A DNA stretch of 64,000 bases from Bacteroidia bacterium (GTDB lineage: Bacteria > Bacteroidota > Bacteroidia > M30B66), in contig OZ257142.1 in the NCBI GenBank assembly GCA_965279035.1, forward strand, positions 824,682 through 888,681. The letters run 5' to 3'. The notes under the pieces were generated by a model that was given only the letters and a program-made list of their open reading frames with translations, was not told the DNA's origin and did not search any database. The position numbers and the translations under genes were made by a program. This document shows, piece by piece, positions 40,265 to 64,000 of the stretch (the stretch's first letter is position 1; every line of letters starts with the position of its first letter).

Positions 40265-42696
<2,432 letters not shown>

Positions 42697-42714
42697 TTTA
42701 CGAGGCACAAGTTC

Positions 42715-42749
42715 AAAAAAAAAGGATAAAACCAATTGGCCTTATCCTT
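42715..42749 (-). terminator. Intrinsic terminator of the ribosomal/rpoA/rplQ operon
   Basis: Stem ggataa/ttatcc with a palindromic loop, followed on the minus strand by a run of 9 T. It lies 27 nt downstream of the rplQ stop. Confidence 0.5.
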
Positions 42750-42775
42750 TCAAAATGTTCACAATGTTGAAGTCA

Positions 42776-46966: not shown

Positions 46967-48319
46967 TTAGCTTGCCATACTCACAGGAGAAGTGGCATTT
47001 GCACGCCCCTTAATTCTTCCACTCTTCATCAAACCATCATATTGACGCATCAATAAATGACTTTCAATTTGTTGAAGAGTATCTAAAACTACCCCTACTA
47101 GAATTAGTAGTGAGGTACCTCCGTAAAATTGTGCGAATTTATTTGTAACTCCTATCATCATTGCCATTGCTGGCAAAATTGCCACAACTGCTAAGAAAAT
47201 AGCGCCTGGCAGAGTAATTCTTGACATGATATTATCAATGAATTCTGCTGTTTGACGACCTGGTTGAATTCCTGGAACAAAACCTCCGTTTCGTTTCATT
47301 TCTTCAGCCATGTTTTTAGGATTTACAGTAATAGCTGTATAGAAATAAGTGAAAAGAATAATCATTACAGCAAATGTGAAATTGTACCAGAATCCCGTTA
47401 CGTTAGAAAATGTTGCCATTATTCCTTGTAATGATTCAATTCCAGCATAACCAACAATCGTAATTGGAATAAACATGATTGCCTGAGCAAAGATAATTGG
47501 CATTACACCAGCTGCATTTACTCTAAGTGGGATGTATTGTCTCGCTCCACCAACTTGTTTATTACCTTGAATTCTCTTTGCTACTTGTACTGGAATTCTA
47601 CGAACCCCTTGCACAAGCATGATTGACATGATAACAATGAATAATAGAATAACAAGTTCAAGTAGGAACATTACCATTCCACCACCTTGTTGTTCTACGC
47701 GAGATCCAAATTCAGCAACGATTGCAGCTGGTAGATTCGCAATAATTCCAACCATGATGATTAGTGAAATTCCATTCCCAATACCACGATCGGTAATTCT
47801 TTCACCTAGCCACATAATGAACATTGTTCCAGCAACTAAAATGATTGTTGATGATATCCAAAAATAGGCTGTATGATCAGAGATAGCATTTACCCCTAAC
47901 TGTTGATTCAAATTTGCTAAATATCCCGGAGCTTGAAATGCTGTAATTACAACGGTTAGGTACCGAGTAAATTGATTCATTTTCTTTCTTCCACTTTCCC
48001 CTTCTTTCTGCATTTTCTGGAAATAAGGAACTGCAATTGTTAAAAGTTGAATAACAATGGAAGCAGAAATATAAGGCATGATACCAAGAGCGAAAATGGA
48101 AGCATTCGAAAACGCTCCACCTGAAAACATATTGAGTAATCCAAGAATACCTTCAGATGTTTGTTGCTTTAAGGCACCAAGTGCATTGGGATCAACACCG
48201 GGCAATACCACGAACGAGCCCAGACGATAAATGAGCAAGAATAGCAGCGTATTACCAATTTTGGTACGAAGCTCTTCGACTTTATAAATGTTCTTTATGG
48301 TATTGATCAGGTTCTTCAT
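46967..48319 (-). CDS. secY: Preprotein translocase subunit SecY
   Basis: 450 aa, 10 TM helices. Canonical position in the spc operon. Confidence 0.9.
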   Translation of the reverse strand: MKNLINTIKNIYKVEELRTKIGNTLLFLLIYRLGSFVVLPGVDPNALGALKQQTSEGILGLLNMFSGGAFSNASIFALGIMPYISASIVIQLLTIAVPYFQKMQKEGESGRKKMNQFTRYLTVVITAFQAPGYLANLNQQLGVNAISDHTAYFWISSTIILVAGTMFIMWLGERITDRGIGNGISLIIMVGIIANLPAAIVAEFGSRVEQQGGGMVMFLLELVILLFIVIMSIMLVQGVRRIPVQVAKRIQGNKQVGGARQYIPLRVNAAGVMPIIFAQAIMFIPITIVGYAGIESLQGIMATFSNVTGFWYNFTFAVMIILFTYFYTAITVNPKNMAEEMKRNGGFVPGIQPGRQTAEFIDNIMSRITLPGAIFLAVVAILPAMAMMIGVTNKFAQFYGGTSLLILVGVVLDTLQQIESHLLMRQYDGLMKSGRIKGRANATSPVSMAS

Positions 48320-48768
48320 CAGGCAATTGTTGTAGCGCTGCCGCCCAGTGATTCAATCGCAGTCTTTGCAGCTGCAGTGTATGCATGAACTGTAATTGCA
48401 AGTTTTGCAGTTAGTTCACCTCTTCCTAAAATCTTTATGCGATCATTTTTAGACGCAAGTCCATTCTCTTGAAGAGTATCAAATGTAATCGCATCAATTT
48501 TCTTGGCTTCAGCTAATTTTTGAAGCGTATCTAGATTGATACCGCGGTATTCAACTCGGTTAATGTTCTTAAAACCAAATTTAGGAACACGACGTTGAAG
48601 TGGCATTTGACCTCCTTCAAAACCTACTTTGCTTGAATAACCTGAACGTGATTTCGCTCCTTTATGACCGCGGGTAGATGTACCACCACGACCAGAGCCT
48701 TGTCCACGACCAATGCGTTTGCTGCTTTTTACTGAGCCTGATGCCGGCTTAAGATTACTGAGGTTCAT
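48319..48768 (-). CDS. rplO: 50S ribosomal protein L15
   Basis: Gly/Arg-rich N-terminus 'GRGQGSGRGGTSTRGHKG'. Confidence 0.9.
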   Translation of the reverse strand: MNLSNLKPASGSVKSSKRIGRGQGSGRGGTSTRGHKGAKSRSGYSSKVGFEGGQMPLQRRVPKFGFKNINRVEYRGINLDTLQKLAEAKKIDAITFDTLQENGLASKNDRIKILGRGELTAKLAITVHAYTAAAKTAIESLGGSATTIA

Positions 48769-48784
48769 TTCTAAACGCTTTATT

Positions 48785-48964
48785 TCAGATTTCCTCTACG
48801 GAAACTAAATGTTTGATTTTATTTACCATTCCTAAAATTTGAGGAGTGGCTTCATGCTCAACAGGATTATGCATTTTGCGAATCCCAAGTGCACGCAGTG
48901 TCAATTTTTGACGTTCTGGACGGTCAATACCGCTTTTGATCTGTGTGATTTTTATTTTAGACAT
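48785..48964 (-). CDS. rpmD: 50S ribosomal protein L30 (59 aa; not in the ORF track)
   Basis: Manual translation gives MSKIKITQIKSGIDRPERQKLTLRALGIRKMHNPVEHEATPQILGMVNKIKHLVSVEEI. Confidence 0.8.
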   Translation of the reverse strand: MSKIKITQIKSGIDRPERQKLTLRALGIRKMHNPVEHEATPQILGMVNKIKHLVSVEEI

Positions 48965-48975
48965 GGGAATTCAAA

Positions 48976-49494
48976 TTATCCGTTGAATACTTTTTCCATA
49001 GTAATACCGCGTTGCTGAGCGATAGTTGCAGGGTCACGCATTAAACTAAGTGCATGAATTGTTGCCTTTACCACGTTATGCGGATTTGAAGATCCTTTTG
49101 ATTTTGCTAGTACATCTGTAATACCAACACTCTCCAATACAGCACGCATTGCACCTCCAGCTATTACACCAGTTCCATGCGCAGCAGGCTTAAGGAATAC
49201 AAGAGCTCCACCGAACTTTCCAATTTGCTCATGCGGCACAGTACCATTGATTACTGGAACTTTTATTAAAGTCTTTTTAGCATCATCAACACCTTTGCTA
49301 ATCGCATCGGTGACTTCTTTTGCTTTTCCAAGACCATGTCCAACAATCCCCTTTTCATTCCCTACAACTACTATAGCTGAGAATGTAAAGGCGCGACCAC
49401 CTTTGGTTACTTTGGTTACGCGATTTACGCCAACCAGCTTATCTTTTAATTCAATTTCGCTGGAGCGAACTCGTTTTATATTTGCGTTTGCCAT
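48976..49494 (-). CDS. rpsE: 30S ribosomal protein S5
   Basis: Contains '[30 protein letters not shown]'. Start trimmed to 'MANANIK'. Confidence 0.9.
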
Positions 49495-49501
49495 GTTCTG
49501 T

Positions 49502-49858
49502 TTAGAATTTAAGACCACCTTCACGTGCACCTTCAGCTAGGGACTTAACCCGACCATGGTACAAATATCCATTTCTGTCGAAACGAACTTCGTTAATTCC
49601 AGCTTCTAATGCTTTCGCAGCGATTGCTTTGCCTACAAGAGTAGCTTGTTCGATCTTGTTTACTTTTTTAGAAGATATAGCCGCTTCAGCTGATGAAGCT
49701 GCAAGTAAAGTATGTCCTTTACTGTCGTCTATTAATTGAACGTATATATCCTTATTGCTGCGGAAAACACTCATGCGTGGAGCATTAGAAGTTCCAACAA
49801 CCACCTTGCGGATGCGTTCTTTAATTCGAGCTCTTCTGTATTCTTTCGTGATAGCCAT
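49502..49858 (-). CDS. rplR: 50S ribosomal protein L18
   Basis: Contains '[19 protein letters not shown]'. Confidence 0.9.
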
Positions 49859-49873
49859 GATCCGGAATGATTC

Positions 49874-50431
49874 TTATTTCTTACCAGCAGATTTACCAGC
49901 TTTACGGCGAAGCACTTCTCCCACGAACTTAATACCTTTTCCTTTATACGGTTCAGGTTTACGTAATGAGCGAATTTTTGCTGCCACCATACCCAGTAAT
50001 TGTTTGTCGGTGGATTTCATAATGATGAGCGGATTTTTACCACGCTCTGTTTTGGTTTCTACTTGAATCTCTTTTGGTAATTCAAACGTAATATTGTGAG
50101 AATATCCTAATGAAAGCTCAAGTATTTGACCTGTATTAGCTGCACGGTAACCCACACCAACTAATTCTTGTTCTGTAGTAAAGCCTTCAGAAACTCCTTT
50201 AACCATATTGGCTATTAGTGAACGATAAAGCCCGTGTTTTGCACGTTGATCTTTATCATCATTCTGACGACTAACTGTAATTGTTCCTTCTTCAATACTA
50301 AGTTTGATTTCAGGATCAACTGCTTGATGTAATTCTCCTAGAGGCCCTTTAACTGTAATCAGGTTGTTAGAAGCTACTGAAACAGTAACTCCATTTGGCA
50401 ACGTGACAGGCATTTTTCCAATACGTGACAT
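49874..50431 (-). CDS. rplF: 50S ribosomal protein L6
   Basis: Starts 'MSRIGKMPVTLPNGVTV'. Start trimmed from the longer ORF. Confidence 0.9.
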   Translation of the reverse strand: MSRIGKMPVTLPNGVTVSVASNNLITVKGPLGELHQAVDPEIKLSIEEGTITVSRQNDDKDQRAKHGLYRSLIANMVKGVSEGFTTEQELVGVGYRAANTGQILELSLGYSHNITFELPKEIQVETKTERGKNPLIIMKSTDKQLLGMVAAKIRSLRKPEPYKGKGIKFVGEVLRRKAGKSAGKK

Positions 50432-50450
50432 GATTTTTCCTCTTTGGCGA

Positions 50451-50855
50451 TTAATATACGTAACAAAGAACTTCTCCACCAACATTCTCACGACGTGCTT
50501 CCTTATCGGTCATTACGCCTTTGGATGTAGATAGAATTGCGATTCCTAATCCATTGATTACACGTGGTATTTTAGCTACGTGTGTGTACTTACGAAGTCC
50601 TGGCTTAGAAACTCTTGAAAGTGTTCTAATTGCTGGAATCTTTGTAACAGGATGATATTTTAATGCAATCTTGATCGTGCCCTGAGGATCAGTCGTTGTT
50701 GCATCCTCAAATTTATAACTGAGAATATATCCTTTTTCAAAAAGGATTTTTGTCATCTCCCGCTTCAACTTAGATGAAGGAATTTCTGCAACGCGGTGAT
50801 TAGCGTTTATTGCATTCCTTAATCGGGTTAAATAATCTGCGATAGGGTCGGTCAT
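50451..50855 (-). CDS. rpsH: 30S ribosomal protein S8
   Basis: Starts 'MTDPIADYLTRLRNA'. Confidence 0.9.
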   Translation of the reverse strand: MTDPIADYLTRLRNAINANHRVAEIPSSKLKREMTKILFEKGYILSYKFEDATTTDPQGTIKIALKYHPVTKIPAIRTLSRVSKPGLRKYTHVAKIPRVINGLGIAILSTSKGVMTDKEARRENVGGEVLCYVY

Positions 50856-50887
50856 TGTTGATCGTATTTATTGATTCTTATTGCGAA

Positions 50888-51157
50888 TTACCAGCTTGCT
50901 TTTGTAATTCCAGGGATTTTCCCATCGGATGCCATTTCACGGAATGTGATACGAGATAATCCGAATTGACGGATATATCCTCTTGGACGACCCGTTAATT
51001 TGCAACGATTACGAAGACGAATCTTCGATGAATTGCGTGGAAGTTTTTGAAGTCCTACTGAATCTCCTGCAGCTTTTAATGCTGCTCTTTTTTCAGCATA
51101 ACGTTCAACCATTTTCGCTCGTTTTACTTCACGAGCTTTCATGCTTTCCTTAGCCAT
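50888..51157 (-). CDS. rpsN: 30S ribosomal protein S14
   Basis: 89 aa. Contains '[13 protein letters not shown]' ... '[11 protein letters not shown]'. Confidence 0.9.
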
Positions 51158-51163
51158 CGTCGC

Positions 51164-51724
51164 TTATTTTTTTAAATTTTTAAACGGAAGTCCGAACTCA
51201 CGAAGTAGTGCGAAAGCTTCTTTATCTGTTGATGCGTTTGTAACAAAGGTAATATCCATACCCATGATACGCGTTACTTTATCAATGTTGATTTCAGGGA
51301 AAATGATTTGCTCAGTTACACCTAAAGTGTAATTACCGTGACCATCAAATCCTTTATCATTGATTCCGCGGAAATCACGGATACGAGGTAAAGCAACAAC
51401 AATAAGACGCTCAAGGAACTCATACATTTGATCTCCTCTAAGTGTTACTCTTGCTCCAATAGCAACTCCTTTACGAAGTTTGAAATTGGAAATATCTTTC
51501 TTTGATTTTGTTGCAACTGCTTTTTGACCAGTAATCATAGTCATTTCAGCTATTGCAGAATCAATTAATTTTTTATCAGATACTGCTGATCCAATTCCTT
51601 GGTTAATACAGATCTTCTCTAATTTAGGTACTTGCATTGTGCTTTTGTACCCAAATTCTGAAAGTAAAGCAGCAGAAATTTCTTTGCGATACTTGGTTTT
51701 GAGGTTCGGTGTGTATTCCATCAC
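51164..51724 (-). CDS. rplE: 50S ribosomal protein L5
   Basis: 186 aa, collinear with L5. Confidence 0.9.
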
Positions 51725-52038
51725 TTAATGATCTCCCCTGTTTTTTTAGAAAAACGAACTAGTTTGCCTTCGGCATCAGCTTTACGGCCAGTTCGCGTAG
51801 GTTTTCCTGTTTTAGGCTCAATTAACATTAGGTTGGAGATGTGAATCGGTCCTTCCATTTTAATAATCCCGCCTTGTGGATATTTTGTGCTTGCCTTGGC
51901 ATGTTTTGAAATCATGTTTGCTCCAATTACAATTGCACGCATTTTTTTTGTGTCAATTTCACGTACTTCTCCAACCTGACCTTTTGAGTCGCCAGATAGT
52001 ACTGTTACTTTATCTCCTTTTTTGATGTGAAGTTTCAT
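51721..52038 (-). CDS. rplX: 50S ribosomal protein L24
   Basis: Contains '[19 protein letters not shown]' (KOW motif). Confidence 0.9.
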
Positions 52039-52053
52039 CGCTCTTTAGCTGAT

Positions 52054-52422
52054 TTAAAGTACCTCAGGTGCTAGGGATACGATTTTCATAAACTGTTTTT
52101 CACGCAGTTCACGAGCAACCGGTCCAAAAATACGGGTACCACGCAATTCGTCATTATTATTTAACAGCACTACGGCATTATCATCAAAACGGATGTATGA
52201 ACCATCAGCGCGGCGTATTTCTTTTTTTGTTCGAACAACAACCGCTTTGGTTACTGATCCTTTTTTTGCATTTCCAGATGGCAACGCATGTTTAACGGTA
52301 ACAACTATTTTGTCACCAACAGATGCATAGCGTTTTTTAGTTCCACCTAAAACACGAATACAAAGCACCTCTTTTGCGCCACTATTATCTGCTACTGTTA
52401 AACGGGATTCCTGTTGTATCAT
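52054..52422 (-). CDS. rplN: 50S ribosomal protein L14
   Basis: Starts '[27 protein letters not shown]'. Confidence 0.9.
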
Positions 52423-52451
52423 GACTCAATTCTTGATCTGTTCGGGTTCTT

Positions 52452-52715
52452 TTATTTCGCACGCTCAATAATCTCAACCATTCTCCAACGTTTGTTTTTG
52501 CTCATTGGGCGGGTTTCGCTGATTTTTACAGTATCACCGATACCGCATTCATTTTTGTCATCGTGTGCAAAAAAGGTTGTTGTCTTTTTTACAAATTTCC
52601 CGTATTTAGGATGCTTTACTTTACGTTCTACTGCAACAACAACGGTTTTATCCATTTTGTTACTACGAACGAGTCCAGTACGTTCTTTACGGAGGTTTCT
52701 TTCAATAGCTTCCAT
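52452..52715 (-). CDS. rpsQ: 30S ribosomal protein S17
   Basis: Contains '[31 protein letters not shown]'. Start trimmed to 'MEAIER' to remove the overlap with rpmC. Confidence 0.85.
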
Positions 52716-52722
52716 CAGCTTA

Positions 52723-52926
52723 TTAATTAGCGGTTGATGTGAGTTCACGCTTGCGAAGTTCCGTTTTCATACGAGCAATTGCACGTCGTGTAGAACGAAT
52801 CTTCAGTGGATTCTCAATTGTAGATACTGTATGGTTAAATACCATTTTAGCTAGTACCTGTGTTTCTTCTTGTATTTTGTCTTTCAATTCTACAATTGAA
52901 AGATCCTGAACTTGATCTTGTTTCAT
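52723..52926 (-). CDS. rpmC: 50S ribosomal protein L29
   Basis: 67 aa. Contains '[13 protein letters not shown]'. Confidence 0.85.
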
Positions 52927-52932
52927 GGCTTA

Positions 52933-53361
52933 TCAGGCAGTTGCTTCTACGTAATCACGACGAACTATGAACTTCGTAGTTACTGGTAATTTTTGAGCTG
53001 CTAATCGAAGTGCTTCTTTTGCAATTTCCATTGGAACACCTTCTGCTTCGAAAATAATTGTTCCTGGTTTTACTACAGCAACCCAATATTCTGGAGCTCC
53101 TTTACCTTTACCCATACGAACCTCTGCTGGTTTTTTGGTAATTGGCTTATCAGGGAAAACGCGAATCCAAATTTGACCTTCACGCTTCATATAACGAGTT
53201 ACAGCAATACGAGCAGCCTCTATTTGACGTGCTGTCATCCATACACCCTCCATTGCTTTTATCCCAAAAGAGCCGAATGCTAACTCGTGTCCACGTGTTG
53301 CATTTCCGTGCATCTTCATTTTATGCTGCTTCCTGTACTTCGTACGTTTCGGCTGTAACAT
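52933..53361 (-). CDS. rplP: 50S ribosomal protein L16
   Basis: Starts '[14 protein letters not shown]'. Confidence 0.9.
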
Positions 53362-53446
53362 CTGTACTTCGTTTTATTGCGTGTTTCTTAATATTTTACT
53401 CTCCGTATTTACTTGGCTTTATGAATGCCTAGTATTTTGGGGACGG

Positions 53447-53476
53447 CAAAGATAGTAAGTTGTTTTTATTATCCAA
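53447..53476 (-). promoter_or_regulatory. Bacteroidetes sigma-A-type promoter (-33 TTG / 19-nt spacer / -7 TATCTTTG) internal to the S10 cluster, upstream of rplP
   Basis: On the minus strand it reads cTTGgataataaaaacaacttacTATCTTTGccgtccccaaaa. The -33 and -7 elements match the Bacteroidetes consensus TTG-N19-21-TAnnTTTG. Confidence 0.55.
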
Positions 53477-53584
53477 CAGACAAGAGTAAAAAATTTTCAC
53501 CTTCTGTGGTTAAGTCTTTAAATCCCTTTGTTTATGGGAGTTGCAATTTGAAAGACAGTTAAAAAATCGATCTTTCAAAGTTTA

Positions 53585-53615
53585 AAAAACAAAAAAAGGG
53601 AAGCTTACGCCTCCC
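53585..53615 (-). terminator. Intrinsic terminator immediately downstream of rpsC
   Basis: On the minus strand it reads gggaggcgtaagcttccc, a 6-bp stem including one G-U pair, followed by tttttttgtttttt. It starts 19 nt after the rpsC stop. Confidence 0.5.
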
Positions 53616-53633
53616 TCTTACTATGAATATTGT

Positions 53634-54380
53634 TTATTTATTGCGCTTATTCCTAGAGCGGCCACCTCTTTCACGATCACGATCTGGAGCTGAAGAATTT
53701 CCTCCTCCGCTTGTTTTTTGTGTCGCCATTCCTAAATTAGGAGAAAGATCTCTTTTACCAAATACTTCCCCTTTACAAACCCATACTTTTATACCAATAC
53801 GGCCATAAGTAGTATGTGCTTCTGATAATGCATAATCAATATCAGCACGAAGTGTATGAAGTGGAGTACGACCTTCTTTATAGCTTTCTACACGAGCCAT
53901 CTCAGCTCCTCCAAGTCGACCAGAAACTTTACATTTAATTCCTTCAGCTCCCATTCGCATGGTTGAAGCAATCGCAGTTTTCATAGCTCGACGGAATGAA
54001 ATTCTACCTTCTAATTGACGAGCAATTCCATCTGCCACTAAACGTGCATCTAATTCTGGACGCTTTATCTCGAAGATATTAATCTGAACTTCCTTCTTTG
54101 TTAGTTTTTTAAGCTCTTCTTTAAGCTTATCAACCTCTTGTCCACCTTTACCGATGATAATACCTGGGCGTGCTGTATTAATTGTTACAGTCACAAGCTT
54201 TAAGGTTCTCTCAATTACAATTCTTGAAACACCAGCTTTTACAAGACGAGCGCTAAGATATTTTCGGATTTTGTGGTCTTCTACTAGTTTATCCGAGTAG
54301 TTACGTCCTCCATACCAGTTGGAGTCCCAGCCACGAACGATGCCCAAACGAAGAGCAATCGGATTACATTTTTGTCCCAT
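53634..54380 (-). CDS. rpsC: 30S ribosomal protein S3 (with an Arg/Gly-rich C-terminal tail)
   Basis: KH domain '[25 protein letters not shown]'. Confidence 0.9.
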
Positions 54381-54407
54381 GTAATATGTTATTGTCTGTA
54401 AAGTTGA

Positions 54408-54815
54408 TTAATTAACAGCGATCACTTTAGTATCCAAAACCAAAGTTACGTGGTTCGAACGCTTACGAATACGGAACCCTCTTCCTTGCGGAGCTGGGCG
54501 AAGACGTTTTAGCATACGTGCACCATCAACTTTTATCTCTTTTACAAAAACATTGCTGTCTTCAAGACGAAGTCCTTCATTCTTAGCTTGCCAATTGGCA
54601 ATAGCAGATAAAAGAAGTTTCTCAAGGCGTATTGCAGCCTCTTTATTTGTAAACTTCAAAATGGCAAGTGCACGATCTACATCTACTCCACGAACTAAAT
54701 CCGCAACTAAGCGCATCTTACGTGGTGATGTTGGACAATCATTTAATTTGGCAAATGCAATGGTTTTGCGTTCTGCCTTCATTGCATCGGCACGGAGTTT
54801 TTTTCTGGCTCCCAT
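54408..54815 (-). CDS. rplV: 50S ribosomal protein L22
   Basis: 135 aa, collinear with L22. Confidence 0.85.
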
Positions 54816-54842
54816 GGTTTATTGGATAAAGAACGTTAGTGA

Positions 54843-55124
54843 TTATTTTCTTCCCTTGTCCTTACGGTTACCCGCATGACCACGGAAAGTACGAGTTGGG
54901 GCAAATTCTCCCAATTTGTGTCCTACCATGTTTTCGGTAACATAAACCGGGATGAACTTATTGCCATTGTGAACAGCGATTGTTTGTCCAACAAAATCCG
55001 GTGAAATCATGGAACGTCTTGCCCATGTTTTGATTACGGATTTCTTTCCTGACTCAATCATGGAGTATACTTTACGCTCCAGTTTGAAATCAATAAAGGG
55101 TCCTTTTTTTAGTGAACGGCTCAT
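54843..55124 (-). CDS. rpsS: 30S ribosomal protein S19
   Basis: Contains '[12 protein letters not shown]' ... '[26 protein letters not shown]'. Confidence 0.9.
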
Positions 55125-55152
55125 TTGTGTTGATTCTCAGGTGTTGAACAAT

Positions 55153-55977
55153 TTATTTTTTACGACGCTCAATGATGTACTTAGTACTGTGGTTTTTAGG
55201 AGCGCGAGTTTTGTATCCTTTTGCTGGAATACCATTTCTGCTTCTTGGATGTCCACCAGATGAACGTCCTTCACCACCACCCATAGGGTGATCTACCGGA
55301 TTCATTGAAACTCCTCGGTTGCGTGGACGACGTCCTTGCCAACGTGTACGGCCTGCTTTACCCGAACGAACCAAACGATGATCTGGATTTGATACAGTTC
55401 CTAAAACGGCTAGACATGTTGCTAAGATCATTCTTGTTTCTCCAGATGGCAATTTAACAATTGCATATTTACCATCTTTCGCAGCTAGTTGAGCTGATAC
55501 CCCAGCACTTCTTACGAGTTGTGCTCCTTGTCCTGGTCGTAATTCAATATGATGAATCATAGAACCTAGTGGAATATCTTTTAAGAATAAAGCATTTCCT
55601 GGTTCAACAGGTGCTTTAGTTCCAGACATTACTGACTGTCCAACCTCAAGCCCATTGGGTGCAAGAATATAGCGTTTTTCTCCGTCAGCATATTGTAACA
55701 AAGCAATACGTGCTGATCTGTTTGGATCATATTCGATTGATTTCACTACAGCAGGAACGTCATGCTTATCGCGTTTGAAATCGATTAAACGATAACGTTG
55801 TTTATGACCTCCGCCAATATAACGCATGGTCATTTTTCCACTGTGGTTACGACCACCGGATTTTTTTTGTTTTACTAGTAATGTTTTTTCCGGTTCACGG
55901 GTTGTTACATCACTGTAAGTATCAGCTACCTTAAATCGGGTACCTGGTGTAATTGGGTTGAATTTTCTGAGTCCCAT
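55153..55977 (-). CDS. rplB: 50S ribosomal protein L2
   Basis: 274 aa. Contains '[15 protein letters not shown]'. Confidence 0.9.
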
Positions 55978-55983
55978 TTCTTA

Positions 55984-56274
55984 TCAAATGTTACTGTAAA
56001 AGTCAATGGTATCTCCCGCTTTTAACGATACAATGGCTTTTTTGCAGTTACCTACAAGTCCACTGTTAACACCACTTTTCGTATTACGCATTTTAACTTT
56101 TCCGATGAATTTCATCGTACGGATATTCTCTACTGTCACACCATATAATTGTTCAATGGCTGACTTAATTTCGATTTTGTTGGCCCCAGGATGAACCACA
56201 AAACCAAAGCGGTTCATCTTCTCAGATTGGCCGGTCATCTTTTCTGTGATGATTGGTTTGATAATGATGCTCAT
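55984..56274 (-). CDS. rplW: 50S ribosomal protein L23
   Basis: 96 aa, collinear with L23. Confidence 0.85.
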   Translation of the reverse strand: MSIIIKPIITEKMTGQSEKMNRFGFVVHPGANKIEIKSAIEQLYGVTVENIRTMKFIGKVKMRNTKSGVNSGLVGNCKKAIVSLKAGDTIDFYSNI

Positions 56275-56275
56275 A

Positions 56276-56908
56276 TCAGTTTTGTGCTAAGAGGTTTTCA
56301 ATCGATTTTACAGAATTTTCAAACAACACGATACTTCCAGCATTCAAAATATCGTAAGTGTTTAAATCGCTAGCAACTACAACTTTACTTCTTTGAAGAT
56401 TACGTGATGATAAGTAAAGGTTCTCGTTCAGTTCTGGAATAACAACAAGTGTTTTCTTATCTGAAACTTTTAGATTACTTAAAATCGAGTTGTAATTTTT
56501 GGTTGATGGTTTTGCAAAATCAAAATTCTCAACCAATACAATTCCGTTTTCTTGAGCTTTGTAAGTAAGTGCCGACTTTCTTGCCAACTGCTTTACTTTC
56601 TTGTTCAAACGAAATGAATAATCACGTGGACGTGGTCCGAAAATACGTCCTCCACCAACAAATACTGGTGATTTAATACTTCCTGCACGAGCTCCACCAG
56701 TTCCTTTTTGACGCTTTAATTTGCGTGTTGAACCTGATACTTCTGCACGTTCTTTTGATTTGTGCGTTCCTTGACGACGGTTTGCAAGAATTTGCTTAAC
56801 GTCGAGGTAAATCGCATGATCATTTGGTTCGATACCGAATATGTCTTTACTTAAAGACACCTTGCGGCCGGTCTCTTGACCGTTTGAGTTGAATACTGCG
56901 AGTTCCAT
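56276..56908 (-). CDS. rplD: 50S ribosomal protein L4
   Basis: 210 aa, collinear with L4. Confidence 0.85.
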
Positions 56909-56909
56909 G

Positions 56910-57527
56910 TTACTTCTCGATCATTACGTAAGAACCCTTCGGACCTGGGATTGCTCCCTGAACTACGATTAGATTCTGTTCGGGTAAAACTTTCAAAACG
57001 GTAAGATTTTGCAACTTAACACGAGCTCCTCCAGTACGACCTGCCATGCGCATTCCTTTGAATACACGTGAAGGATAAGAAGATGCTCCTAGTGATCCAG
57101 GTGCACGAAGACGGTTATGTTGACCGTGAGTAGCCATACCAACTCCACTAAATCCATGACGCTTTACAACACCTTGGAAACCTTTTCCTTTGGATGTTCC
57201 AATTACGTCTACAAATTCTCCTTCAGTAAACAAATCAACTGTGATTGTGCTTCCTAAAGTTTGTTCTGTTTCGAAGAAACGAAATTCAGCTACTTTACGC
57301 ATAGGTGCTGTATTTGCTTTCGCAAAGTGACCTTTCATTGCAGCAGATGTATGCTTCTCCTTTTTCTCGTCAAACGCCAGTTGAACTGCGCTATAACCAT
57401 CTTTTTCGATGGTTTTGACTTGCGTTACAACGCAAGGACCAGCTTCTATAATTGTGCATGGTATGTTCTTACCAGCGGCACTGTAGATACTGGTCATACC
57501 GATTTTTTTTCCGATTAGACCTGACAT
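56910..57527 (-). CDS. rplC: 50S ribosomal protein L3
   Basis: Starts '[15 protein letters not shown]'. Confidence 0.9.
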
Positions 57528-57573
57528 TTTATTTTATTGTGTGATAGAAATTCAATGATTTAATTTTAAAGCA

Positions 57574-57879
57574 CTAGACTTTAATTTCAACTTCAACTCC
57601 ACTTGGTAGCTCTAATTTCATCAAAGCGTCAACTGTTTTTGAAGTTGTACTGTAGATATCTAACAAGCGCTTGTATGAACAAAGTTGGAATTGCTCTCTT
57701 GCCTTTTTGTTCACGTGCGGTGAACGAAGTACAGTGAAGATCTTTTTGTTCGTTGGAAGTGGAATTGGTCCACTTACTACAGCTCCTGTAGATTTTACCG
57801 TTTTAACAATTTTCTCAGCCGATTTGTCTACAAGATTGTAGTCATAAGACTTGAGTTTAATTCGGATTTTCTGGCTCAT
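57574..57879 (-). CDS. rpsJ: 30S ribosomal protein S10
   Basis: Contains '[13 protein letters not shown]' ... 'GPIPLPT'. Confidence 0.9.
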
Positions 57880-57896
57880 GGGTTTATAAAGAACGA

Positions 57897-60002
57897 TTAA
57901 ACATTTGCAGTTTTACCTTTTGCTTTCGCAATCACTTCGTCAGCAACGTTACGTGGAGCTTCAGCGTAATGCGAAGGTTCCATAGTTGATGTTGCGCGTC
58001 CAGAAGAAATCGTACGTAGTGTTGTAACATATCCGAACATTTCACTCAATGGAACTTTTGCACGGATTACTTGAGCACCACCACGACTGTCCATTCCTTC
58101 CAATTGACCACGACGTTTGTTCAAGTCACCAATGATATCTCCCATATAATCTTCTGGAGTTACCACTTCTACTTTCATGATTGGCTCAAGAAGTACTGGT
58201 TTCGCTTTGGGTAATGCCTCGCGGAATGCTGTTTTAGCGCAGATTTCGAAAGACAATGAATCAGAGTCAACAGCATGGTATGAACCATCGCTAAGTGTAA
58301 CTTTTAAACTATCCATAGTATATCCAGCAAGAACACCATTTTGCATGGCTGTCTTAAATCCTTTTTCTACTGATGGAATGTATTCACGTGGAATGTTACC
58401 TCCAACTACTGCATTGATAAACTGAAGACCTTCTTTTCCTTCATCAGCTGGTCCAATCGTAACAACGATGTCAGCGAATTTACCACGACCACCAGTTTGT
58501 TTTTTGTAAACCTCACGGTGATTGATTGTAGAAGTAATAGCCTCTTTGTAGTTTACTTGTGGAGCTCCTTGGTTACACTCAACTTTAAACTCACGTTTTA
58601 AACGGTCAAGGATAATTTCCAAGTGAAGCTCACCCATTCCGCTGATAATGGTTTGACCAGAATCTTCATCCGTTTTAACACGGAACGTTGGATCTTCTTC
58701 AGCTAATTTTGATAAAGCCATACCCAATTTATCTACGTCAGCTTGAGTTTTAGGCTCAATCGCAACACCGATAACTGGATCAGGGAAATTCATTGCTTCA
58801 AGAACAATTGGATGCTTCTCATCACATAGTGTATCTCCTGTTTTGATATCTTTAAATCCTACTGCCGCTCCAATATCTCCAGCTTCAATGTATTCGATTG
58901 AATTCTGTTTATTAGCATGCATTTGGAAGATACGGCTGATACGCTCTTTGTTACCACTACGGGTATTCAATACGTATGAACCAGCATCAAGATGTCCTGA
59001 ATAAGCACGGAAGAAACAAAGACGACCTACGAATGGATCGGTTGCTATCTTAAATGCTAAAGCCGTAAATGGATCTTTAACATCTGGACGACGTGTAACT
59101 TCTTCACCTGTATCTGGATTAATACCTGTGATACTTTCTTTATCCATTGGGCTTGGCATCAACTCCATTACAAGGTCTAGCATTGTTTGAACACCCTTGT
59201 TTTTGAAAGCTGTTCCACAAACCATAGGAACAATTTTATTTGTAACGCAAGCTTGACGAAGTGCTGTCAAGATTTCACGTTCTGTAATAGATTCAGGAGC
59301 ATCAAAGAATTTCTCCATCAAACTATCATCAAATTCAGCGATTGCTTCAAGCAATTTCCCTCTCCATTCTGTAGCCTCATCCAGCATATCTTCTGGAATT
59401 GGAACAATATTGAAAGTCATTCCTTTATCAGCATCATTCCACTCAATTCCACGGAAGTTAATCAAATCAACTACTCCACGGAAAGTTTCTTCAGCTCCAA
59501 TTGGTAGCTGAAGTGGAATTGGATTTCCTCCAAGTACTTCTTTCACTTGCTTAACAACAGCAAGGAAGTCAGCTCCCTGACGGTCCATTTTATTTACGAA
59601 TCCTAAACGTGTTACGTTGTAGTTATTCGCTAAGCGCCAGTTTGTTTCTGATTGAGGTTCAACACCATCAACAGCAGAGAACAAGAACACCAATCCATCC
59701 AATACACGAAGTGAACGATTTACTTCAACCGTAAAGTCAACGTGACCTGGAGTATCAATGATGTTTAATTTGTATTTGTTATCACGGTAATTCCAGAAAC
59801 AAGTTGTTGCTGCAGACGTGATTGTGATACCGCGTTCCTGCTCCTGAACCATCCAGTCCATAGTAGCAGCTCCGTCGTGTACTTCACCAATTTTATGGTT
59901 TACACCGGTATAATAAAGAATACGCTCTGTCGTAGTTGTTTTACCGGCATCAATGTGCGCGGCAATACCGATGTTGCGTGTGTATTGAAGATCGTGAGCC
60001 AT
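57897..60002 (-). CDS. fusA: Translation elongation factor G
   Basis: 701 aa. G-domain '[15 protein letters not shown]' and 'DTPGHVDF'. Confidence 0.9.
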
Positions 60003-60026
60003 GACGTTCTTGGGAATCTCTTGGGA

Positions 60027-60494
60027 TTAGAAGCGGAAATGTGAAAATGCTTTGTTCGCCTCAGCCATACGGTGAGTGTCTTCTTTCTTTTTGTGAGCGG
60101 AACCTTCGCCTTTCGACGCAGCTACAATCTCAGAAGCTAGACGTTGTGCCATCGACTTCTCATTGCGCTTACGTGAATACATAATCATCCATTTCATACC
60201 TAAAGCGATACGACGATCCGGACGAATTTCCATCGGAATCTGAAACGTAGCTCCTCCAACACGACGGCTTTTTACCTCAACTGTTGGACTAACGTTTTCC
60301 AAAGCACGTTTCCATACTTCATGACCGTTTTCTTCAGTACGTTTTTCTACGATATCAACTGCATCGTAAAAAATGGAGTAAGCGATGCTCTTTTTACCAT
60401 CGAACATCAAGTTATTAACGAAACGCGTTACCAATGGATCGTTAAATCTTGGATCCGGTGTGCGAGCTATTCGTTTGGGGGTGGTCTTTCTCAT
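60027..60494 (-). CDS. rpsG: 30S ribosomal protein S7
   Basis: 155 aa, collinear with S7. Confidence 0.9.
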   Translation of the reverse strand: MRKTTPKRIARTPDPRFNDPLVTRFVNNLMFDGKKSIAYSIFYDAVDIVEKRTEENGHEVWKRALENVSPTVEVKSRRVGGATFQIPMEIRPDRRIALGMKWMIMYSRKRNEKSMAQRLASEIVAASKGEGSAHKKKEDTHRMAEANKAFSHFRF

Positions 60495-60522
60495 GGTGCG
60501 AAAGGAATGCTATTGTCTTTAT

Positions 60523-60936
60523 TTATTTCTTTTTGCCTTTACCTGCAGCTGCAGCTGGTTGTCCTGGTTTTGGACGTTTCGTTCCATATTTAGAACGACG
60601 TTGATTACGACCTTCTACTCCAGATGTATCTAATGCACCACGTACAATGTGGTAACGTACCCCTGGTAGATCTTTTACACGACCACCACGTATTAATACA
60701 ATACTGTGTTCTTGTAAGTTGTGACCTTCTCCTGGAATGTATGCGTTAACTTCTTTCGTATTCGTTAATCGAACACGAGCTACTTTACGCATTGCTGAGT
60801 TAGGTTTCTTTGGTGTTGTTGTGTATACGCGTGTACACACTCCACGACGCTGAGGACATGAATCCAAAGCTGGACTCTTACTCTTAGTTGCGTTGGGCGT
60901 GCGGCCCTTACGTACAAGCTGCTGGATAGTAGGCAT
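60523..60936 (-). CDS. rpsL: 30S ribosomal protein S12 (Bacteroidetes-type, with a ~13-aa C-terminal Lys/Ala-rich extension)
   Basis: Starts '[12 protein letters not shown]' and contains '[11 protein letters not shown]'. Confidence 0.9.
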
Positions 60937-61004
60937 GCTTTTAGGCGTTGATTGTATGGATGTTAGAGACTCTTTTTAGCTAATTCGCCCAATTTTTGGG
61001 AGCG

Positions 61005-61034
61005 CAAAGATAGGAAGTACTTTCAAATTCACAA
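61005..61034 (-). promoter_or_regulatory. Bacteroidetes sigma-A-type promoter of the rpsL-rpsG-fusA... operon
   Basis: On the minus strand it reads agTTGtgaatttgaaagtacttccTATCTTTGcgctcccaaaaa: TTG, a 19-nt spacer, then TAnnTTTG. It lies ~70 nt upstream of the rpsL ATG. Confidence 0.55.
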
Positions 61035-61359
61035 CTAGGTGAGTAAAAAATAATTCCACAGAATGATGCTTTTCTTTTGAACAGTCTTTTTTGAAGCCAT
61101 TTATTTAGCTCAATTTGACCTTTGCAAAGCGCTACTTTCCTTTTATACATTCCTTTCTATTCATTTTTGATGAAGTAGATTTTTTTTCAATTTATTTTTC
61201 ATTTGGGGGCGCCTTCGGCCAGGTGCTCGCCTGTACGCTTCGCCCAAATTGGGCTGCAGGGTACTTGTCTCGCCCCTTCGCCCGTCTTATTCTTCCTATT
61301 TAACATCATCGTGAATAAATTACTACATTCTTCGTTTCTGCATTCCCTAACTTTGCCCC

Positions 61360-63714
61360 ATGCAGAATGATTATTTAAATGAGCTAAATCCAATCCAGCG
61401 ACAGGCTGTTGAAAATACCGAAGGGCCTGTTATGATTATTGCCGGTGCTGGTTCTGGAAAAACGCGTGTACTTACATATCGAATAGCACACCTTCTTAGT
61501 AAAGGTGTTGATGCATTTAACATTTTATCACTCACGTTCACGAATAAAGCTGCTCGTGAAATGAAAGAACGCATCCATAAAATAGTGAAGAATACCGAGT
61601 CTGCTAATCTTTGGATGGGAACTTTTCACTCCGTGTTTGCTCGTATCCTTCGATTCGAAGCCGAAAAACTTGGTTATCCTTCCAATTTTACAATCTATGA
61701 TACAGATGATTCCAAAAGCCTTATCAAAACGATTCTAGGTGAAATGCAATTAGATGATAAAATCTATAAGCCATCTCTCGTCTTAAATCGAATTTCCAAT
61801 GCAAAAAATAACCTGATTTCTTCCGCGCAATACCTTAATCAACCTGAAGTCATTGAAGAAGACCGTCAAAGCGGAAAGCCAAAATTAGGTTTGGTTTATG
61901 AAGCGTACGAAAAACGTTGTTTTAAAGCATCAGCAATGGATTTTGATGATTTGCTCTTTAAAACCAATGTGCTTTTAAAACAATATCCCGATGTACTATA
62001 TAAGTATCAACAGAAATTCAAGTACATTTTAGTTGACGAGTACCAGGATACCAATTTCAGTCAGTATTTAATAGTAAAAAAACTGGCTGCCATGTTTCAG
62101 AATATTTGCGTTGTAGGCGATGATGCACAAAGTATTTATGCTTTCCGCGGAGCGAATATTCAAAACATCCTCAATTTCGAAAAAGACTATCCTGATCTCA
62201 AAGTTTATAAACTCGAACAAAACTATCGCTCAACTAAAACAATTGTTCAGGCCGCCAATAGTGTCATTCGCAACAATAAAGACCAGCTGAAAAAAGTAGT
62301 CTGGACCGACAATAAAGACGGAGAATTAATTCGATTATTAAAAGCAAGTACAGATAATGAAGAAGGTTCAATGGTGGCAAACGGCATTTTCGATCTTCGA
62401 ATGAATTATCAATTACCTAACAGTGATATTGCCATTTTGTATCGAACAAACGCACAAAGCCGTTCGATGGAAGAAGCACTCCGTAAACGTGGTATTCCTT
62501 ATCGTATATATGGTGGCCTTTCGTTTTACAAGAGAAAGGAAATTAAAGATCTACTAGCTTATTGCCGATTAACCATCAATCCGAAAGACGAAGAAGCATT
62601 AAAGCGGGTGATTAATTATCCAGCTCGAGGAATTGGAAAAACCTCCCTCGAAAAAATTATCGTTTCTGCTGATCAACATAATAAAAGTATCTGGGAAATT
62701 ATTGAAGGAATGGCATTGTATCGTCCTATAAGCGGGGCTTCTGCTCAAAAGGTGATCGACTTTGTTACGATGATTAAAAGCTTTCAACATGGACTTAAAA
62801 GCACAAATGCATACGATTTAGCAATGCATATTGCACGTTCATCTGGTCTGCTAAAAGAATTAGGCAGTGATAAAACTCCCGAAGGCATTAGTAAACATGA
62901 AAATGTAATGGAGTTACTTAATGGGATTCAAGAATTTGTTGATACTCCTCCCGAAAGTGATGATGAAGTGGCTGAAAGAACCTTAGATGTTTTCATGCAA
63001 GACATTGCTTTGCTAACAGACGCAGATGAAAACGAAAAAGATGATCCCAATCGTGTTTCCATGATGACAATTCACGCAGCCAAGGGATTGGAATTTCCTG
63101 CTGTATTTGTTGTTGGATTAGAAGAAAATTTATTCCCTTCTCAATTATCATTAAACAGCAGGGAAGAATTGGAAGAAGAGCGTCGATTATTTTATGTTGC
63201 AATTACTCGTGCTGAGAAACATTTAACATTATCAAGTGCTACAACCCGCTATCGTTGGGGACAAATAACGCATTCGGAGCCGAGTCGATTTTTAGAAGAA
63301 ATAGATGCATCCTTATTGGATATGCCAGTTGCTTCAGAGCCCAAAGGTTTTCTTGATTTTAGTTCGGAACGGTCAAGTTTCGGTGGATTTACTCCCAAAG
63401 GAACAGCCAATGCATTCAAATCAAAAACTTCCAAAGAACCTGATTTGCCTTTGCTTCAACCTAAAAAAGGCTTTACACCTTTGAAAAAAGTACTGGACAA
63501 ACCCATTTCAAATCAAGAATCAACCTCATTATTTATAGCTGATGATGTTAGTAAACTTCAATCTGGTATGGAGGTTATACACGAGCGATTTGGGCCTGGA
63601 AAAGTTCTAAACGTTGATGGTAGACCAGGAGAACAGAAAGCAACCATCTTTTTCAAAGAAGTAGGACAAAAACAATTATTGCTTAAGTTTGCACGACTAA
63701 AGATAATTAGCTGA
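61360..63714 (+). CDS. ATP-dependent DNA helicase, UvrD/PcrA/Rep superfamily 1
   Basis: 784 aa. Walker A 'AGAGSGKTRVLTYRIAHLL', 'VDEYQDTN' (motif II), 'GDDAQSIYAFRGA' and 'MTIHAAKGLEFPAVFVVG'. Confidence 0.85.
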   Translation: MQNDYLNELNPIQRQAVENTEGPVMIIAGAGSGKTRVLTYRIAHLLSKGVDAFNILSLTFTNKAAREMKERIHKIVKNTESANLWMGTFHSVFARILRFEAEKLGYPSNFTIYDTDDSKSLIKTILGEMQLDDKIYKPSLVLNRISNAKNNLISSAQYLNQPEVIEEDRQSGKPKLGLVYEAYEKRCFKASAMDFDDLLFKTNVLLKQYPDVLYKYQQKFKYILVDEYQDTNFSQYLIVKKLAAMFQNICVVGDDAQSIYAFRGANIQNILNFEKDYPDLKVYKLEQNYRSTKTIVQAANSVIRNNKDQLKKVVWTDNKDGELIRLLKASTDNEEGSMVANGIFDLRMNYQLPNSDIAILYRTNAQSRSMEEALRKRGIPYRIYGGLSFYKRKEIKDLLAYCRLTINPKDEEALKRVINYPARGIGKTSLEKIIVSADQHNKSIWEIIEGMALYRPISGASAQKVIDFVTMIKSFQHGLKSTNAYDLAMHIARSSGLLKELGSDKTPEGISKHENVMELLNGIQEFVDTPPESDDEVAERTLDVFMQDIALLTDADENEKDDPNRVSMMTIHAAKGLEFPAVFVVGLEENLFPSQLSLNSREELEEERRLFYVAITRAEKHLTLSSATTRYRWGQITHSEPSRFLEEIDASLLDMPVASEPKGFLDFSSERSSFGGFTPKGTANAFKSKTSKEPDLPLLQPKKGFTPLKKVLDKPISNQESTSLFIADDVSKLQSGMEVIHERFGPGKVLNVDGRPGEQKATIFFKEVGQKQLLLKFARLKIIS

Positions 63715-63807
63715 TACCGAAACCCTTTATTGATTGGTGTTTCAAAGGAATTCAACTGGAAAATTCGATTGTTTCCTATTGATTTCATTTCCCAAAGATT
63801 AAACTAC

Positions 63808-64000
63808 ATGGAATACAATTCCCAAAGACCACACCTCATAATTTCTGAGTATGGTCGCCACATTCAACGAATGATTGATCATGCTTGTGAAATTTCTGAA
63901 CGCGAGGAACGAAATACAATGGCTCGATATATCATTTCTGTAATGGGGCAACTCAATCCTCATTTGCGCGATGTAAGTGATTTTAAACATAAGCTATGGG
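63808..64000 (+). CDS. N-terminal part of a DUF4290-family protein (Bacteroidetes-conserved); 3' end truncated by the window
   Basis: Manual translation gives MEYNSQRPHLIISEYGRHIQRMIDHACEISEREERNTMARYIISVMGQLNPHLRDV..., which matches the DUF4290 N-terminal signature. There is no stop before the window end. Confidence 0.5.
   Translation, partial: MEYNSQRPHLIISEYGRHIQRMIDHACEISEREERNTMARYIISVMGQLNPHLRDVSDFKHKLW

Follow-up and report, generated by a model that had tools for sequence, protein, structure and literature searches.

A putative operon boundary between rpsC and rplP in the ribosomal-protein cluster of one uncultured Bacteroidota lineage

The ribosomal-protein genes rpsC and rplP of an uncultured Bacteroidia bacterium (assembly GCA_965279035.1, contig OZ257142.1, positions 824,682 to 888,681) are separated by an unusually equipped spacer. 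Our analysis of this stretch of 64,000 nucleotides (nt), hereafter the window, suggests with a probability of about 0.8 that the spacer is a true operon boundary, acquired by a single uncultured Bacteroidota lineage. In transcriptional order, a terminator hairpin is followed by its T-run, a linker, a promoter, a leader and then the AUG of rplP. The elements themselves are ordinary, namely a Rho-independent terminator and a Bacteroidota sigma-A promoter; what is unusual is their place.

Encoded on the minus strand, like all of its features described below, the ribosomal-protein cluster comprises about 32 genes over about 18 kb from rpsL to rplQ. The array reads rpsL-rpsG-fusA-rpsJ-rplC-rplD-rplW-rplB-rpsS-rplV-rpsC | rplP-rpmC-rpsQ-...-rpoA-rplQ, with rpsC as the last gene of the upstream unit and rplP as the first gene of the downstream unit. 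Pfam identified S12, S7, EF-G and S10 at the upstream end of the cluster, L29 and S17 directly 3' of rplP, and SecY, S13, S11, S4, RpoA and L17 at the downstream end. The open reading frames (ORFs) of rpsC (ribosomal protein S3; 53634..54380; Pfam Ribosomal_S3_C and KH_2) and rplP (ribosomal protein L16; 52933..53361; Pfam Ribosomal_L16) leave exactly 272 nt between them (53362..53633), in agreement with an earlier note on this DNA, which had described a spacer of this length splitting the S10 cluster. The remaining called gaps in the cluster were no longer than 46 nt, except for two of 207 nt and 384 nt. Neither of these is taken as a real gap, because by the usual gene order rpmD is expected in the former and infA and rpmJ in the latter, and such small genes fall below the ORF cut-off of 90 amino acids (aa); L30 was called at the position of the 207-nt gap in homologous loci. 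The gap between rpsC and rplP is the sole real large gap of the rpsL-to-rplQ cluster. A coding gene within it was considered as well, but the spacer wholly contained a single ORF of 30 aa or more, with 45 aa on the plus strand (53425..53562), and the variable length and sequence of the spacer among relatives disfavoured this explanation.

The intrinsic terminator (53584..53619), recognised by a terminator scan, fold energy and conservation, consists of an A-tract, an 11-bp GC-rich stem, a GUAA loop and a U-tract. The hairpin begins 14 nt past the stop codon of rpsC on the coding strand, with the stem at 53619..53594 and the U-tract at 53593..53584. Its sequence is AAGAGGGAGGC-GTAA-GCTTCCCTTTT followed by the T-tail TTTGTTTTTT to 53584, or, as RNA, AAGAGGGAGGC-GUAA-GCUUCCCUUUU and then UUUGUUUUUU; five of the stem pairs are G-C, and 9 of the 10 tail positions are T. 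With a free energy of -18.2 kcal/mol (z = -5.06), the hairpin folded better than all 200 shuffles, and it was the top terminator-like site in the 16 kb of 48000..64000. The earlier note had placed a stem-loop with a T-run at 53585-53615, which was essentially right. A hairpin and T-run were present 4-22 nt past the stop codon in all 13 lineage members with rpsC upstream, and also in a contig whose upstream gene lies off the locus (L101) and in 9 of 9 further contigs found via the identical L16 protein. About 10 distinct stem sequences were observed across 23 contigs, for example GGGGAAAC/GUUUCCCC, GAGGGCC/GGUCCUC, GGGAAGU/ACUUCCC, GGGAG/CUCCC and GCCUGUAC/GUACAGGC, all of them complementary and all followed by a T-run, with T-tracts perfect over 7-10 nt. 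The hairpin is taken to be functional because the structure was kept intact while the sequence of the stem changed. The scans covering the cluster gave two strong minus-strand terminators, one after rpsC and one after rplQ. The latter (42720..42751), with a 14-pair stem and a T-run, lies just past rplQ, which was identified by Pfam, at the end of the downstream unit. A mechanically called ORF (41563..42735, TTG start) overlaps this second terminator, and its true start is therefore probably further downstream.

Downstream of the rpsC terminator, the linker (53498..53583) was poorly conserved, variable in length and without Rfam match; most members had 87-139 nt between the terminator end and the -7 box, one contig (L124) about 640 nt, and by this variation the linker is apparently unconstrained. 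The linker is followed by a sigma-A promoter, TTG-N19-TATCTTTG (53447..53476), which was found by motif scan and was invariant in all members. The -33 TTG (53476..53474) and the -7 box TATCTTTG (53454..53447) are separated by a spacer of 19 nt, and the end of the -7 box is 85 nt from the ATG of rplP. The TTG lies 108 nt after the end of the T-run, where the earlier note had expected a sigma-A promoter at about 110 nt. Promoters of the primary sigma-A of Bacteroidota (sigma-ABfr) carry TTTG at -33 and TAnnTTTG at -7 (PMC7366714, PMC9723704). The promoter in the spacer resembles them in its -7 box, the -33 TTG, the 19-nt spacing and an upstream A/T tract; it is intergenic and co-oriented with rplP, and an identical element occurs elsewhere. 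Its -33 element reads GTTG (53477..53474), with G in place of the first T of TTTG, and TGTTG at -33 was invariant across the lineage. The putative UP-like A/T tract AAAATTTTTTACTC (53484..53497, about -55..-42), read from the sequence, was partly conserved, with a mean major-base frequency of 0.74. A scan for promoters of the Escherichia coli sigma-70 type gave fewer matches than shuffles and was uninformative for this phylum.

The upstream unit begins with a promoter of the same architecture before rpsL, TTG-N19-TATCTTTG-CGCTCCC-AAAAA (60997..61034), found by motif scan and conserved in two other contigs (L103 and L107). From upstream to downstream, the rpsL promoter is composed of TTTTTTACTC, 6 nt, TTG, N19, TATCTTTG, CGCTCCC and AAAAA, and the rplP promoter of TTTTTTACTC, 7 nt, TTG, N19, TATCTTTG, CCGTCCCC and AAAA, so that TTTTTTACTC occupies the equivalent site in both; upstream of the box they also share A(C/G)TT(A/C)C. 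Against a genomic GC content of 37%, the 8 nt past the -7 box contain 7 G or C residues in the rplP promoter (CCGT then CCCC) and 6 in the rpsL promoter, compared with 1-4 in the four other candidates in the window. Origin of the rplP promoter as a duplicate of the rpsL promoter was considered and set aside, both being AT-rich and common descent being inseparable from convergence. Another member of the lineage (L085) differs from the window, L103 and L107 in that the 130 nt upstream of its rpsL contain no -7 box and have GC-rich sequence instead; the promoter there is therefore further upstream or different.

Conservation was concentrated in a 35-nt invariant block from -25 to +10 (53433..53467), which includes the proximal spacer, the -7 box, the GC-rich, discriminator-like CCGT and the initial bases of the transcript, CCCCAAAAUA, and which stood out in the first alignment as a perfectly conserved block amid about 50% identity. 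No other copy of this block was found in the window, even at 3 mismatches, and a repeat or mobile copy as its origin was rejected. Its 20-nt core TATCTTTGCCGTCCCCAAAA (53435..53454) was found exactly on 35 metagenome contigs. It lies before rplP of this lineage on 16 of them and before rpsL of other Bacteroidota on 11, and further copies in other Bacteroidota were located 15 nt before tRNA-Gly (one contig), 31 nt and 146 nt before tRNA-Asp (two contigs), some 420 nt ahead of a 16S rRNA gene (L086) and before efp (one contig); L108 was assigned to rRNA solely by its upstream similarity to the rRNA-proximal L086. With this one exact sequence as the query, 33 of the 35 matches precede rplP, rpsL, tRNA, rRNA or efp, the other two being L097 and L115. 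Its position suggests that the core acts as a promoter at the tRNA, rRNA, rpsL and efp sites too. It is very improbable that the block is instead an RNA or protein-binding element, for instance for processing or as an operator, in a transcript that runs on from rpsC into rplP and has no promoter here. Such an element would account for conservation beyond what a promoter needs, as -25..-13 and +1..+10 are invariant as well, and CCCC...GGGG might just as well serve a regulator as a palindrome in the DNA. However, both elements of the block agree with the sigma-A consensus and have the canonical 19-nt spacing (PMC7366714), it sits downstream of a terminator, and the identical core occurs at promoter distance before tRNA, rRNA, rpsL and efp with unrelated upstream sequences. 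It also occurs in one contig (L088) with no ribosomal-protein gene upstream.

In this contig (L088:3750-4659, minus strand of the locus), the promoter and rplP are located behind an unrelated 229-aa ORF without Pfam match, and rpsC is absent upstream. Its L16 is 96.5% identical to that of the window, homology with the family begins at the UP-like tract, and the core element is the only candidate promoter for rplP. The cluster thus appears to be physically broken exactly at the rpsC-rplP junction, and, if the contig is not chimeric, it would represent a natural experiment in which the rplP unit functions apart from rpsC on this promoter alone. Another contig (L124:467-1230) has a spacer of 764 nt, a length also given by gene calls in one more contig. 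The extra DNA of about 570 nt is AT-rich, ORF-free and located between terminator and promoter, it contained no repeats and no Rfam family, and the L16 protein of these strains is identical to that of the window.

The cluster has two promoters and two terminators, which argues for two transcription units. A possible but doubtful alternative is that the spacer is not a boundary, the hairpin being a leaky terminator or a stabiliser of the 3' end, so that much of the rplP-rplQ mRNA comes from read-through and the internal promoter tops it up. The efficiency of termination is not readable from sequence, both promoters are of the same class, which makes additive use plausible, and internal promoters adding to read-through are described as common in long operons (PMC12083536). 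The terminator, however, is strong by the usual criteria (11-bp stem, -18.2 kcal/mol, 9/10 T tail), it was kept by compensatory change with perfect T-tracts in every member, the linker behind it tolerates some 570 nt of extra DNA, and L088 carries the rplP unit without rpsC upstream. The conserved terminator and promoter, the context in L088 and the comparative evidence support the claim of the earlier note that transcription from rplP onward could be independent.

Several points weigh against the operon boundary. The full promoter motif is not rare, with 6 occurrences in the window and about 4 expected from shuffles, and its significance comes from its position, because only two of the 13 coding-strand matches to TAnnTTTG in the 18-kb cluster are intergenic, one before rplP and the other before rpsL. 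Retrieval of the metagenome members relied on the core sequence, which fixes their identity at -12..+8 in advance; the conservation test was therefore repeated on the 12 sequences that came from protein searches alone, in which -25..+10 was an invariant run of 35 nt and 6 of 63 four-fold-degenerate rplP columns were invariant. This unbiased set is small (n = 12), and 10 of its sequences (the window and L116-L124) have identical L16. In the larger set, none of the 49 four-fold columns was invariant, with a mean pairwise identity there of 0.47, and neither TGTTG at -33 nor the A/T tract at -55..-42 was part of the search pattern. L088, being a metagenome contig, might be a chimeric assembly. Finally, we infer the efficiency of termination, the exact start site, and the activity and strength of the promoter from sequence.

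Relatives were collected by a genome scan with S3, which returned 80 Bacteroidota loci. The rpsC-rplP gap was 278 and 243 nt long in the two closest loci, whose L16 is 97-98% identical to that of the window. Among the other 77 loci it had a median of 30 nt and a maximum of 107 nt (a further locus, L039, was masked by a run of N and stands outside the 77), which bears out the claim of the earlier note that these genes normally adjoin directly. Gaps of 207-278 nt, rising to 764 nt in two strains, were confined to genomes with an L16 94-100% identical to that of the window. The nearest outgroups (L16 85-88% identical) had AT-rich gaps of 32-45 nt without a hairpin, and none of the 77 other loci contained the full promoter motif within 200 nt of rplP; because of this, adjacency of rpsC and rplP is most simply read as the ancestral state and the split as an innovation of this lineage. 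The anatomy of the spacer, its conservation and its restriction to the lineage were all observed directly.

Two more distant Bacteroidota had rpsC-rplP gaps of 107 nt (L005:1829-1935) and 79 nt (L003:3793-3871), which consist of long inverted repeats of short tandem units (CTCAAAT, CTAAATC) and have no T-run and no promoter motif. These gaps, with repeat-derived hairpins and no function-like signals, speak for the spacer being a non-functional scar of inserted or rearranged DNA in which the terminator and promoter motifs are incidental, as does the plasticity of the linker, to which some strains have added AT-rich, ORF-free DNA of about 570 nt. This explanation is scarcely credible, since an invariant 35-nt block and maintained terminators persist amid free divergence, with synonymous sites near saturation.

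The operon boundary would work as follows. Transcription from the rpsL promoter would stop at the Rho-independent terminator just past the end of rpsC. RNA polymerase carrying the primary sigma factor would then make a fresh start at a strong promoter composed of the UP-like tract, the -33 TTG, N19, TATCTTTG and CCGT. Initiation near 53442 would produce a leader of 81 nt and the genes from rplP through rplQ, ending at the terminator at 42751..42720. The cluster would be expressed as two units of about 7.5 kb and 10.7 kb. Because the new promoter is classed with those of rpsL, rRNA, tRNA and efp, with which it shares the core TATCTTTGCCGTCCCCAAAA, both units would still respond to the same global signals, and the distal genes would be freed from one very long transcript. 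This selective advantage, like the roles of the leader discussed below, is something that we infer. If correct, even the most conserved bacterial gene array can still gain an internal operon boundary, and operon annotation and metatranscriptomics of these uncultured organisms, which are represented only by metagenome-assembled genomes, should treat rplP-rplQ as a separate unit.

In E. coli the ribosomal-protein genes are reportedly split into the str, S10, spc and alpha operons, as described by Lindahl and Zengel and by Nomura and co-workers. The arrangement here is alike in that a conserved array is divided into successive units with their own promoters and, as we read it, coordinate regulation. 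The boundaries differ, since the S10|spc boundary of E. coli lies after rpsQ and before rplN, and that of the window three genes earlier, at rpsC|rplP; the rpsQ-rplN gap here is only 29 nt and without signals, so no boundary of the E. coli type was found. Relative to E. coli, str and S10 are fused in one unit, and spc and alpha in the other. No regulatory RNA of the L4 or S8 type, as in E. coli, was detected by Rfam search. The S10-spc-alpha region of Bacillus subtilis is said to be a single-transcript locus, a finding attributed to Li et al. 1997 in J Bacteriol. In Leptospira interrogans, the whole S10-spc-alpha locus is read from promoters upstream of fus (PMC2481283). Both loci have the same gene content and order as the cluster here and are read through the whole cluster from 5' promoters, whereas in this lineage a terminator and a second promoter have been inserted. 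The ancestral state of Bacteroidota, as far as it can be reconstructed from their short gaps without internal signals, would resemble the single-transcript type.

The more interesting lead is the compact promoter core common to rRNA, tRNA and ribosomal-protein genes of Bacteroidota. In 14 of the 18 non-rplP copies (rpsL, tRNA, rRNA) among L081-L115, GGG(G) was found within 8 nt after the core, and these copies showed a CCCC-AAAA-N-GGGG hairpin or palindrome at about +1..+13. Since the core and the GC-rich stretch are common to the rpsL, rRNA, tRNA and efp promoters, the rplP promoter falls into a recognisable translation-machinery class. We tentatively propose, at clearly less than even odds, that TATCTTTG-CCGTCCCC-AAAA(N)-GGGG is a phylum-wide signature of the translation-machinery promoters of Bacteroidota (rRNA, tRNA, rpsL, efp and here rplP), in which the GC-rich stretch and the CCCC/GGGG hairpin or palindrome mediate growth-rate or stringent control. 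Candidate sites of this signature in the window are 53435..53454 and 60997..61012; the window has no rRNA. According to Travers in 1980 and Haugen et al. in 2006, as cited in PMC12641261, stringently controlled rRNA, tRNA and ribosomal-protein promoters of E. coli reportedly contain a GC-rich discriminator. The promoters here are alike in that a GC-rich stretch lies between the -10-like element and the start at translation-machinery genes, and such a sequence is indeed present between the -10-like box and +1 of rplP. They differ in sigma factor and promoter grammar and in that the conserved stretch reaches into the transcript, where a complementary G-run usually comes next; the likeness is one of sequence alone. 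Compared with sigma-ABfr promoters, the invariant GC-rich CCGTCCCC and AAAA past the -7 box are an addition, common to the rRNA, tRNA, rpsL and efp promoters, and are not described in PMC7366714 or PMC9723704. Our search of the literature returned nothing relevant for the core sequence or for an internal rpsC/rplP promoter, which is weak evidence given its limited coverage. If the proposal is true, the signature would be the functional counterpart of the GC-rich discriminator of E. coli on a different sigma factor, and the lineage would have recruited the module for a new co-regulated ribosomal-protein operon, with L088 showing that the module is portable. In any case, the compact and very strongly conserved module is a candidate for a strong, growth-coupled promoter part, and an entry to how Bacteroidota, with their unusual sigma factor and Shine-Dalgarno-independent translation, coordinate the synthesis of the translation apparatus.

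The start site was predicted from the position of the box. In Flavobacterium psychrophilum, the sigma-A box TAnnTTTG lies at -12..-5 (PMC9723704), and with the box of the rplP promoter placed likewise, +1 is predicted at 53442, the first C of CCCC. The predicted rplP leader (53362..53442) would be 81 nt long, so that both values agree with the start near 53440 and the leader of about 80 nt proposed in the earlier note. The MAFFT alignment of 19 leaders was unreliable after +15, and per-sequence folds compared with shuffles were therefore used. In the fold of the window leader, the 5' CCCC (53442..53439) is predicted to pair with the G-run GGAGAG (53404..53399), forming a helix which encloses a small variable hairpin (about 53434..53410). 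Across members the G-run is GGA, GGGA or GGGGA at about +35..+45, and the sequence of the hairpin differs between families. Over 13 independent sequence families, the pairing of CCCC with downstream sequence (P1) had a probability of 0.62, compared with 0.16 in shuffles, and the enclosed hairpin (P2) was modestly stable, with a mean z of about -1.0. From the G-run to the AUG, the window leader continues with about 37 nt of A-rich unstructured RNA (35-45 nt across members). Shine-Dalgarno-independent initiation is known in Bacteroidota, and the A-rich tail fits it.

The earlier note had suggested that the leader could host an autoregulatory structure, that is, that a ribosomal protein encoded downstream binds the 5' leader and represses translation or transcription of the rplP unit. 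The predicted leader is indeed longer than the median 5' untranslated region of Bacteroidota, 24-32 nt (PMC9723704), its 5' domain with CCCC and a G-run enclosing a hairpin was kept in 13 divergent sequence families, and ribosomal-protein leaders are often lineage-specific (PMC3616713). Nevertheless, autoregulation seems improbable, and the suggestion did not hold up. Leader conservation was limited to the first 15 nt or so, with free divergence after +15, and what is kept is only the small variable 5' stem-loop; the hairpins differ in sequence and loop size throughout, their stability is modest, and no internal loop or bulge mimicking an rRNA site, with conserved unpaired or binding nucleotides, was found. 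Rfam searches of the whole window at gathering thresholds and of the spacer at E <= 10 gave nothing meaningful and no match to a described family over the leader; the best match at E <= 10, L20_leader, scored 20.5 bits, below its gathering score of 58.7, and covers the terminator hairpin. The same CCCC-AAAA-GGGG start is also found on tRNA and rRNA precursors, where feedback by a ribosomal protein is unexpected. A small terminal stem-loop is the probable fold at the 5' end of the leader and would be compatible with a part in keeping the transcript stable; our reading of this domain is a generic terminal stem-loop and no ribosomal-protein operator.

Outside the cluster, a GC-rich island (61195..61320; 60% GC compared with 37% for the window) was observed between the rpsL promoter and a divergent plus-strand ORF of 784 aa at 61360. 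It had no Rfam match at E <= 1. The island folds moderately on both strands (z = -1.9 and -2.5) with several UUCG- or GNRA-like loops, and may be a structured RNA.

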